A DNA stretch of 24,737 nucleotides, from the IMG/VR virus record IMGVR_UViG_2718218399_000013; one strand, given 5' to 3'. The notes under the pieces were generated by a model. That model did not search any database and was not told the origin of the DNA. It saw only the letters and a program-made list of their open reading frames with translations. How positions within the stretch are numbered: position 1 is the stretch's first letter; each line of letters starts with the position of its first letter. The position numbers were made by a program, and so were the translations under genes. Shown one piece after another: positions 22,301 through 22,414 of this stretch. The stretch comes from a virus. Lineage: Duplodnaviria > Heunggongvirae > Uroviricota > Caudoviricetes.

Positions 22301-22414
22301 ATGGATGCACAAACACGCCGCCGCGAACGTCGCGCAGAGAAACAGGCTCAATGGAAAGCAGATCGGATTCTGGCTTCAACATTTCGCAGGAATGCAACTA
22401 AGAGACATTACTGA
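22301..22414 (+). pseudogene. N: N antiterminator remnant: first 20 codons of lambda N, then unrelated sequence and stop
   Basis: [20 protein letters not shown] (arginine-rich boxB-binding motif) then [21 protein letters not shown]; deletion junction at about 22360. Confidence 0.8.

Follow-up and report, generated by a model that had tools for sequence, protein, structure and literature searches.

A deletion scar joining the N and integrase genes of the cryptic lambdoid prophage Sp1 (CP-933H) in Escherichia coli O157:H7

Background

Full-length N of phage lambda has about 107 amino acids, with a NusA-binding region at approximately residues 34–47 and an RNA polymerase-binding region at approximately residues 73–107. 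At the opposite end of the early left region of lambdoid phages lies the integrase gene, and integrases of the P22 family that are specific for the tRNA gene thrW are found in the Shigella serotype-converting phages SfIV, SfV, SfI, and SfII and in Escherichia phage phi458. The cryptic prophage known as Sp1 in E. coli O157:H7 strain Sakai and as CP-933H in strain EDL933 has already been published, both of the gene remnants considered here have been annotated in it, and it has been described as non-excisable yet damage-inducible. A 2009 study of the Sakai prophages scored the Int of Sp1 as “D” (defective) and its excision as absent, detected no circularisation with or without mitomycin C (Table 2), and found the early genes of Sp1 to be induced by mitomycin C, with a biological significance that the authors of the study called unknown (PMC2669165). 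Sp1 is missing altogether from some O157 strains (PMC5359411).

Here, we analysed a stretch of 24,737 nucleotides (the window) from the IMG/VR virus record IMGVR_UViG_2718218399_000013 (Caudoviricetes). A first-pass annotation, made from the letters and their open reading frames, had claimed that a deletion at 22301–22414 joins codon 20 of a lambda-type N gene to integrase DNA. We compared the region with lambda, related phages, and prophages, and with complete E. coli genomes, and examined what is left of the genes on both sides of the junction.

Results

Assignment of the window to the thrW-proA locus of E. coli O157:H7

The window corresponds to the thrW-proA locus of E. coli O157:H7 and ends in thrW and proA. 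Over positions 21900–23500, the O157:H7 strains 86-24, CDC#03-98, and ATCC 43888 match the window at 100% and Sakai and EDL933 at 99.9%, the difference from Sakai amounting to about 1 base in 1601. The Sakai record labels the segment “prophage Sp1, lambda-like phage” and places it beside the P4-like Sp2; ECs_0272 is annotated there as “phage early gene regulator”, and ECs_0271 and Z0307 represent the int-side remnant. The position at thrW beside Sp2, the gene orders cI-cro-cII-O′-P′ and N′-int′, and the collinearity at 99.9–100% identity all agree with Sp1. These comparisons identify the feature as the scar of an N-int deletion in the cryptic lambdoid prophage Sp1 of Sakai, the CP-933H of EDL933. 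The integration site is marked by the following features:

13012–13058, no strand: exact second copy of the 47-bp att core, at the distal end of Sp1, which faces Sp2
23293–23339, no strand: att core adjacent to int′ that overlaps thrW at its 3′ end
23294–23369, minus strand: thrW (tRNA-Thr CGT)

Counting a degenerate copy at 109–142, the att core from the 3′ end of thrW occurs three times (two exact copies, listed above), and the three copies bound the tandem prophages Sp2 (P4-like) and Sp1.

The junction lies between positions 22361 and 22362

The region around the junction comprises the following features, of which those upstream of N′ were placed by alignment to lambda:

22011–22073, plus strand: operators OL3-OL2-OL1 and promoter PL
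22045–22050, plus strand: PL −35 hexamer (TTGACA)
22068–22073, plus strand: PL −10 hexamer (GATACT), at a spacing of 17
22113–22143, plus strand: nutL, with boxA at 22113–22121 and boxB at 22129–22143
22301–22414, plus strand: N′, an ORF of 37 codons with lambda N residues 1–20 followed by 17 out-of-frame residues read from int DNA
22362–23279, plus strand: int′, a 5′-truncated integrase gene (codons 83–387 and the stop) of the SfIV/SfV/phi458 thrW-specific type

Alignment to lambda places the deletion junction to the base, between 22361 and 22362. The last lambda-type base (22361) corresponds to lambda coordinate 35300 and to the first base of N codon 21, and int codon 83 (of 387) begins at the next base. 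Three independent comparators agree on this position, namely lambda, a prophage of E. coli O121:H19, and SfIV/phi458. The window and lambda are about 95% identical over 22000–22361, with 17 differing positions, none of which falls in the last 75 bases (22287–22361), and the lambda homology stops at base 22361. Positions 22362–23339 share 99.2% identity with SfIV and phi458 across int and attP, and on the int side the match at this level extends to SfV, SfI, and SfII. The first-pass annotation was thus right that the sequence is lambda-like from PL through nutL and the first 20 codons of N and that a deletion connects these codons to integrase DNA. The abrupt switch to the “integrase region” that it described is also real; the point of entry is the interior of the int ORF, at codon 83. 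A divergent but full-length N downstream of codon 20 can be rejected, as the sequence from 22362 onwards is the integrase gene.

According to the alignment, the G at 22361 is the sole base common to both junction parents, and microhomology at the breakpoint is therefore rejected. Since a single base is shared, the join between N and int is an illegitimate and essentially blunt deletion. Of 5426 complete E. coli genomes, 214 contain the junction, as found with a 200-bp query that spans it, and all other matching genomes contain either the N half only (ending at 22361) or the int half only. An assembly artefact as the source of the junction can be rejected because these 214 independent complete genomes carry it. 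None of the 50,697 phage records searched covers at least 80% of positions 21900–23500.

The deleted segment and its intact relatives

Phage phi458, with a genome of 44.9 kb, carries sequences related to both halves of the scar: it matches the window at 99.2% identity in int, 97.7% in the lambda-like start of N, and 98.2% in O/P/cII, and shares the att core as well. The two breakpoints are separated by 7430 bp in this phage, so that approximately 7.4 kb are missing from Sp1 relative to phi458. The missing block runs from the remainder of N, over the genes sieB, ral, cIII, kil, gam, bet, exo, and xis, to int codons 1–82. Between P′ and N codon 20, a complete lambdoid prophage in O121:H19 strain FWSEC0006 matches the window at 98.4–99.4% identity (99.4% over 22000–22361), and the match stops exactly at 22361. 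Beyond this point, the prophage has a full-length N followed by sieB, ral, cIII, kil, gam, bet, exo, xis, and int; lambda has the lost genes in the same order. The presence of these genes in phi458, the O121:H19 prophage, and lambda confirms the earlier suggestion that the whole recombination and early left region is gone.

A different and apparently complete lambdoid prophage, with a full-length N and a complete recombination region, is present at thrW in O55:H7 strain CB9615 (17635–40001 of the examined locus), which is closely related to the O157:H7 lineage. We considered this prophage as the undeleted ancestor and rejected it, since identity in int is only about 72% and the immunity regions are different.

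The integrase remnant

The int′ remnant lacks codons 1–82, a start codon of its own, and an adjacent xis; in SfIV, xis sits upstream of int, and in Sp1 it is PL-N′ that abuts int codon 83. The reading frame of int′, +1 relative to N′, is open by chance back to an ATG at 22305, which is the second ATG of the string ATGGATG and lies 4 nt after the N start. The resulting chimeric ORF (22305–23279) has 324 amino acids, and its residues 20–324 differ from residues 83–387 of SfIV Int at one position (304/305 identical). The catalytic domain is complete (PF00589, positions 1–171 of 172, E-value 2.4e-47), the conserved R...K...HxxR...W...Y residues are intact, and the stretches that align to HP1 integrase and to a XerC-like recombinase hold the LATG-R and H-LRHT...RYAH motifs. 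The N-terminal part of SfIV-type Int matches the Pfam family DUF6538 weakly, below the cut-off. As the catalytic domain aligns to XerD and XerA from about residues 160–185 onwards, the missing part of Int probably corresponds to the arm-binding region plus the first part of the core-binding domain.

In Sakai, int′ is annotated as ECs_0271, an intD pseudogene. For strain 3-5-1, the NCBI pipeline (PGAP) describes the integrase as “incomplete; missing N-terminus” with a start one codon before the breakpoint, and the same pipeline labels the int′ ORF “site-specific integrase” in many genomes. Because the first 82 residues and Xis are missing and circularisation is not detectable, Int′ is in our view best treated as a pseudogene product that would be unable to excise the element even if it were translated from the ATG at 22305. 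Both 47-bp att cores are intact, and excision in trans by the Int and Xis of a related phage is conceivable.

The N remnant and its leader

The leader of N′ is well preserved. The operators differ from those of lambda by a single substitution in OL2 (22033) and a single substitution in OL1 (22062). BoxA reads TGCTCTTAA (22113–22121), with one substitution relative to lambda (C to T at the first base), and boxB, GCCCTGAAGAAGGGC (22129–22143), is identical to lambda. The first-pass annotation held that the 37-codon ORF could still yield a peptide with the arginine-rich motif; the Shine-Dalgarno sequence (AGGAG at 22289–22293), the ATG, and this motif all survive downstream of an intact PL and nutL. 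The first 20 residues of N′, which hold the boxB-binding arginine-rich motif, are identical to those of lambda N, and N′ matches the Pfam family N36, which derives from the boxB-binding peptide of N (PF11438; E-value 3.8e-10, 39.7 bits against a cut-off of 25), at profile positions 1–20 of 35 only. Sakai ECs_0272 is the same frame lengthened upstream to a GTG at 22169.

Measured against what defines an N-type protein, N′ thus has the boxB-binding motif, and a cognate nut site lies in the PL transcript; the NusA-binding and RNA polymerase-binding regions are absent, and the ORF ends after 37 codons. Since the regions that contact NusA and RNA polymerase lie beyond residue 20 and have been lost, N′ could at most bind boxB and would be expected neither to antiterminate nor to modify RNA polymerase.

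Immunity switch and transcription

Upstream of the operators, the prophage encodes a repressor:

20699–21412, plus strand: cI, full length, 237 amino acids (Sakai ECs_0274), 233/237 identical to lambda CI

CI controls PL and PR of the Sp1 remnant, and the hexamers of both promoters have been kept. Of the lambda-type immunity switch, CI, OL/PL, and OR/PR are all still present. Between PL and position 24659, no intrinsic terminator was predicted on the plus strand. In published strand-specific RNA-seq data, the int remnant Z0307 rises by a logFC of 6.4 (about 2^6.4-fold) in trimethoprim-sulfamethoxazole, and on the PR side cII and O′ rise by a logFC of 7.7 and 7.5, respectively (PMC4048457 Table S4). 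Together with the mitomycin C data, these published inductions show that the CI/PL switch of Sp1 still works. PL is probably the promoter of the int′ RNA signal, and cleavage of CI is the likely trigger of induction. The first-pass annotation had proposed that int may be read from PL transcripts without N-mediated antitermination. Transcription without a functional N agrees with the published data; what is transcribed is not a usable integrase gene, as codons 1–82 and xis are absent. A further transcriptome paper gives counts at the level of whole prophages only (PMC5931665), and protein-level evidence for CP-933H was found in one rumen-fluid proteome paper, which mentions the PinH invertase only.

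Other signs of decay in Sp1

Several other parts of Sp1 have been altered. The lambda-type O gene (19031–19953, minus strand) is frameshifted by a 23-bp tandem duplication of an ori iteron at 19506–19528, which raises the number of iterons from four to five. An intact O of 900 nt is found in O157:H7 strain 3-5-1, and the iteron duplication is therefore polymorphic within the lineage. In 18723–19034 (minus strand), approximately the first 21 lambda-type codons of P are fused in frame to DNA from the tail-fibre side; this fusion, with a breakpoint at about 18971, marks another large deletion, on the side of PR. Published RNA-seq data show strong induction by trimethoprim-sulfamethoxazole of the downstream tail-fibre genes Z0314 and Z0316, presumably driven from PR.

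The ORF of 129 amino acids in the rexAB position (21540–21929) is a remnant from which 576 bp are missing at 21887 relative to the 99%-identical O121:H19 prophage, which holds an NYN-domain gene at this site. The ORF gave no Pfam match at E-values up to 0.01, and its nature is taken from the O121:H19 relative. The match is split at 21886–21890 in some O157:H7 genomes, whose number we estimate at roughly 45 from genome-match counts, and in the one strain examined, 3-5-1, a copy of IS629/IS1203 with a 4-bp target duplication sits exactly at the junction of the 576-bp deletion (21887–21890; locus coordinates 3980–5294).

At 15906–18723, a gene for a Pin-type DNA invertase adjoins oppositely oriented tail-fibre and tail-fibre-assembly genes, an arrangement that suggests an invertible host-range segment. 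The segment survives in a prophage without other virion genes, and the PinH protein has been detected in the rumen-fluid proteome.

Discussion

We consider the observations on Sp1 to be best explained by prophage decay, in which a single deletion of about 7.4 kb left a live CI/PL switch next to defective remnants, and we give this explanation as a whole a probability of roughly 0.9. One illegitimate event from N codon 21 to int codon 82 would have taken out, apart from the recombination genes, the NusA-binding and RNA polymerase-binding parts of N, the terminator tL1, and the N-terminal DNA-binding part of Int. With the N-terminal part of Int and xis deleted, the prophage would be locked in the chromosome. 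In an uninduced cell, CI would hold PL off; upon DNA damage, CI would be inactivated and PL would fire to give a transcript with nutL, the 37-codon N′ ORF, and the int remnant. This transcript would reach int′ without antitermination, given that the terminators that N normally overcomes have been deleted.

Both halves of the scar might instead never have been part of one phage. If two prophages had integrated in tandem at thrW, with an SfIV-type phage next to the tRNA gene and a phage of lambda immunity distal to it, loss of the boundary between them could have produced the same junction. thrW is indeed a hotspot of tandem integration, as seen from Sp2 beside Sp1 and the third, degenerate att copy at about 109–142, and the different lambdoid prophage of O55:H7 CB9615 at this site also speaks for such an origin. 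We nevertheless consider it improbable. The int gene, the lambda-like start of N, O/P/cII, and the att core are united in the single genome of phi458, so that one internal 7.4-kb deletion suffices, and Sp1 has one att core on each side and none inside.

Still less probable are the readings in which the remnants have been kept for a function or have remained active. N′ could serve as a decoy for boxB against lambda-type N, in the manner of the arginine-rich part of Nun action, or the SOS-inducible PL could produce antisense RNA through thrW and proBA. The intact arginine-rich motif, Shine-Dalgarno sequence, and ATG of N′ are consistent with a decoy, and Nun is a precedent for a protein of this type that can compete with N at boxB (PMC5386594), but CI represses PL in the lysogen, so that N′ would be absent at the time of a phage infection, and N′ lacks any part that contacts RNA polymerase. 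In favour of an antisense role, no plus-strand terminator is predicted before the PL transcript enters thrW and proA in antisense, and proA and proB fall by a logFC of −3.0 and −2.9, respectively, in the inducing condition (PMC4048457); this fall occurs, however, amid a global depression of expression (e.g., thrC, −2.8). The conservation of the junction in 214 genomes is uninformative on selection, since O157:H7 is a young clone, and the O157 strains without Sp1 also argue against a retained function. That the switch has been co-opted as an SOS-responsive module, with N′ titrating boxB RNA, an antisense transcript crossing thrW and proBA, or both, is a highly speculative proposal; if true, DNA damage would be coupled to tRNA-Thr and proline synthesis via an unterminated antisense PL transcript. 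No more credible is an active truncated recombinase that acts on core sites, encoded by the 324-residue chimeric ORF. Its catalytic domain and conserved residues are intact, its reading frame extends without a stop from an ATG 4 nt past the start of N, both att cores are intact, its RNA is induced, and PGAP often calls it a site-specific integrase. Against this stand the absence of Sp1 circularisation with or without mitomycin C (PMC2669165 Table 2), the missing first 82 residues and Xis, the pseudogene label in Sakai and in some PGAP annotations, and the position of the 22305 ATG, whose distance to the Shine-Dalgarno sequence is 11 nt and which overlaps with the N start, itself in a better position.

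Under the preferred explanation, a single decay deletion within Sp1, the breakpoint is now fixed to the base, with lambda coordinate 35300 joined to int codon 83. The scar would explain why Sp1 does not excise despite the many automatic “site-specific integrase” calls, and it offers a structural reason for the damage-inducible leftward remnant, in that the deletion has left the CI/PL switch untouched and removed the terminators between PL and int. The scar is a textbook example of how a decaying prophage can keep a working regulatory switch that drives defunct genes, and its importance hardly extends beyond annotation.

The locus has no substantive difference from Sp1/CP-933H, with which it shares the thrW-proA site, 99.9–100% identity, and the same N′-int′ junction. 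It shares residues 83–387, the attP core, and the thrW target with the thrW-specific P22-family integrases of SfIV, SfV, SfI, SfII, and phi458 and differs from them in that their residues 1–82, start codon, and adjacent xis are missing. Compared with lambda N and its PL-nutL leader, the PL hexamers, boxB, the Shine-Dalgarno sequence, and N residues 1–20 are identical and the leader is about 95% identical, whereas residues 21–107 are gone, which makes N′ a fragment and not an antiterminator. Nun of HK022 is likewise prophage-encoded and binds lambda boxB by means of an arginine-rich motif at its N terminus (PMC5386594); unlike N′, it has a C-terminal segment that arrests RNA polymerase and is expressed in the lysogen. 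Among the Sakai prophages, the lambdoid remnants Sp3, Sp11, and Sp12 are also locked in by loss or disruption of int/xis and have kept some regulated genes, and of the non-replicating prophages of this strain, Sp1 alone has residual early genes that clearly remain damage-inducible (PMC2669165).
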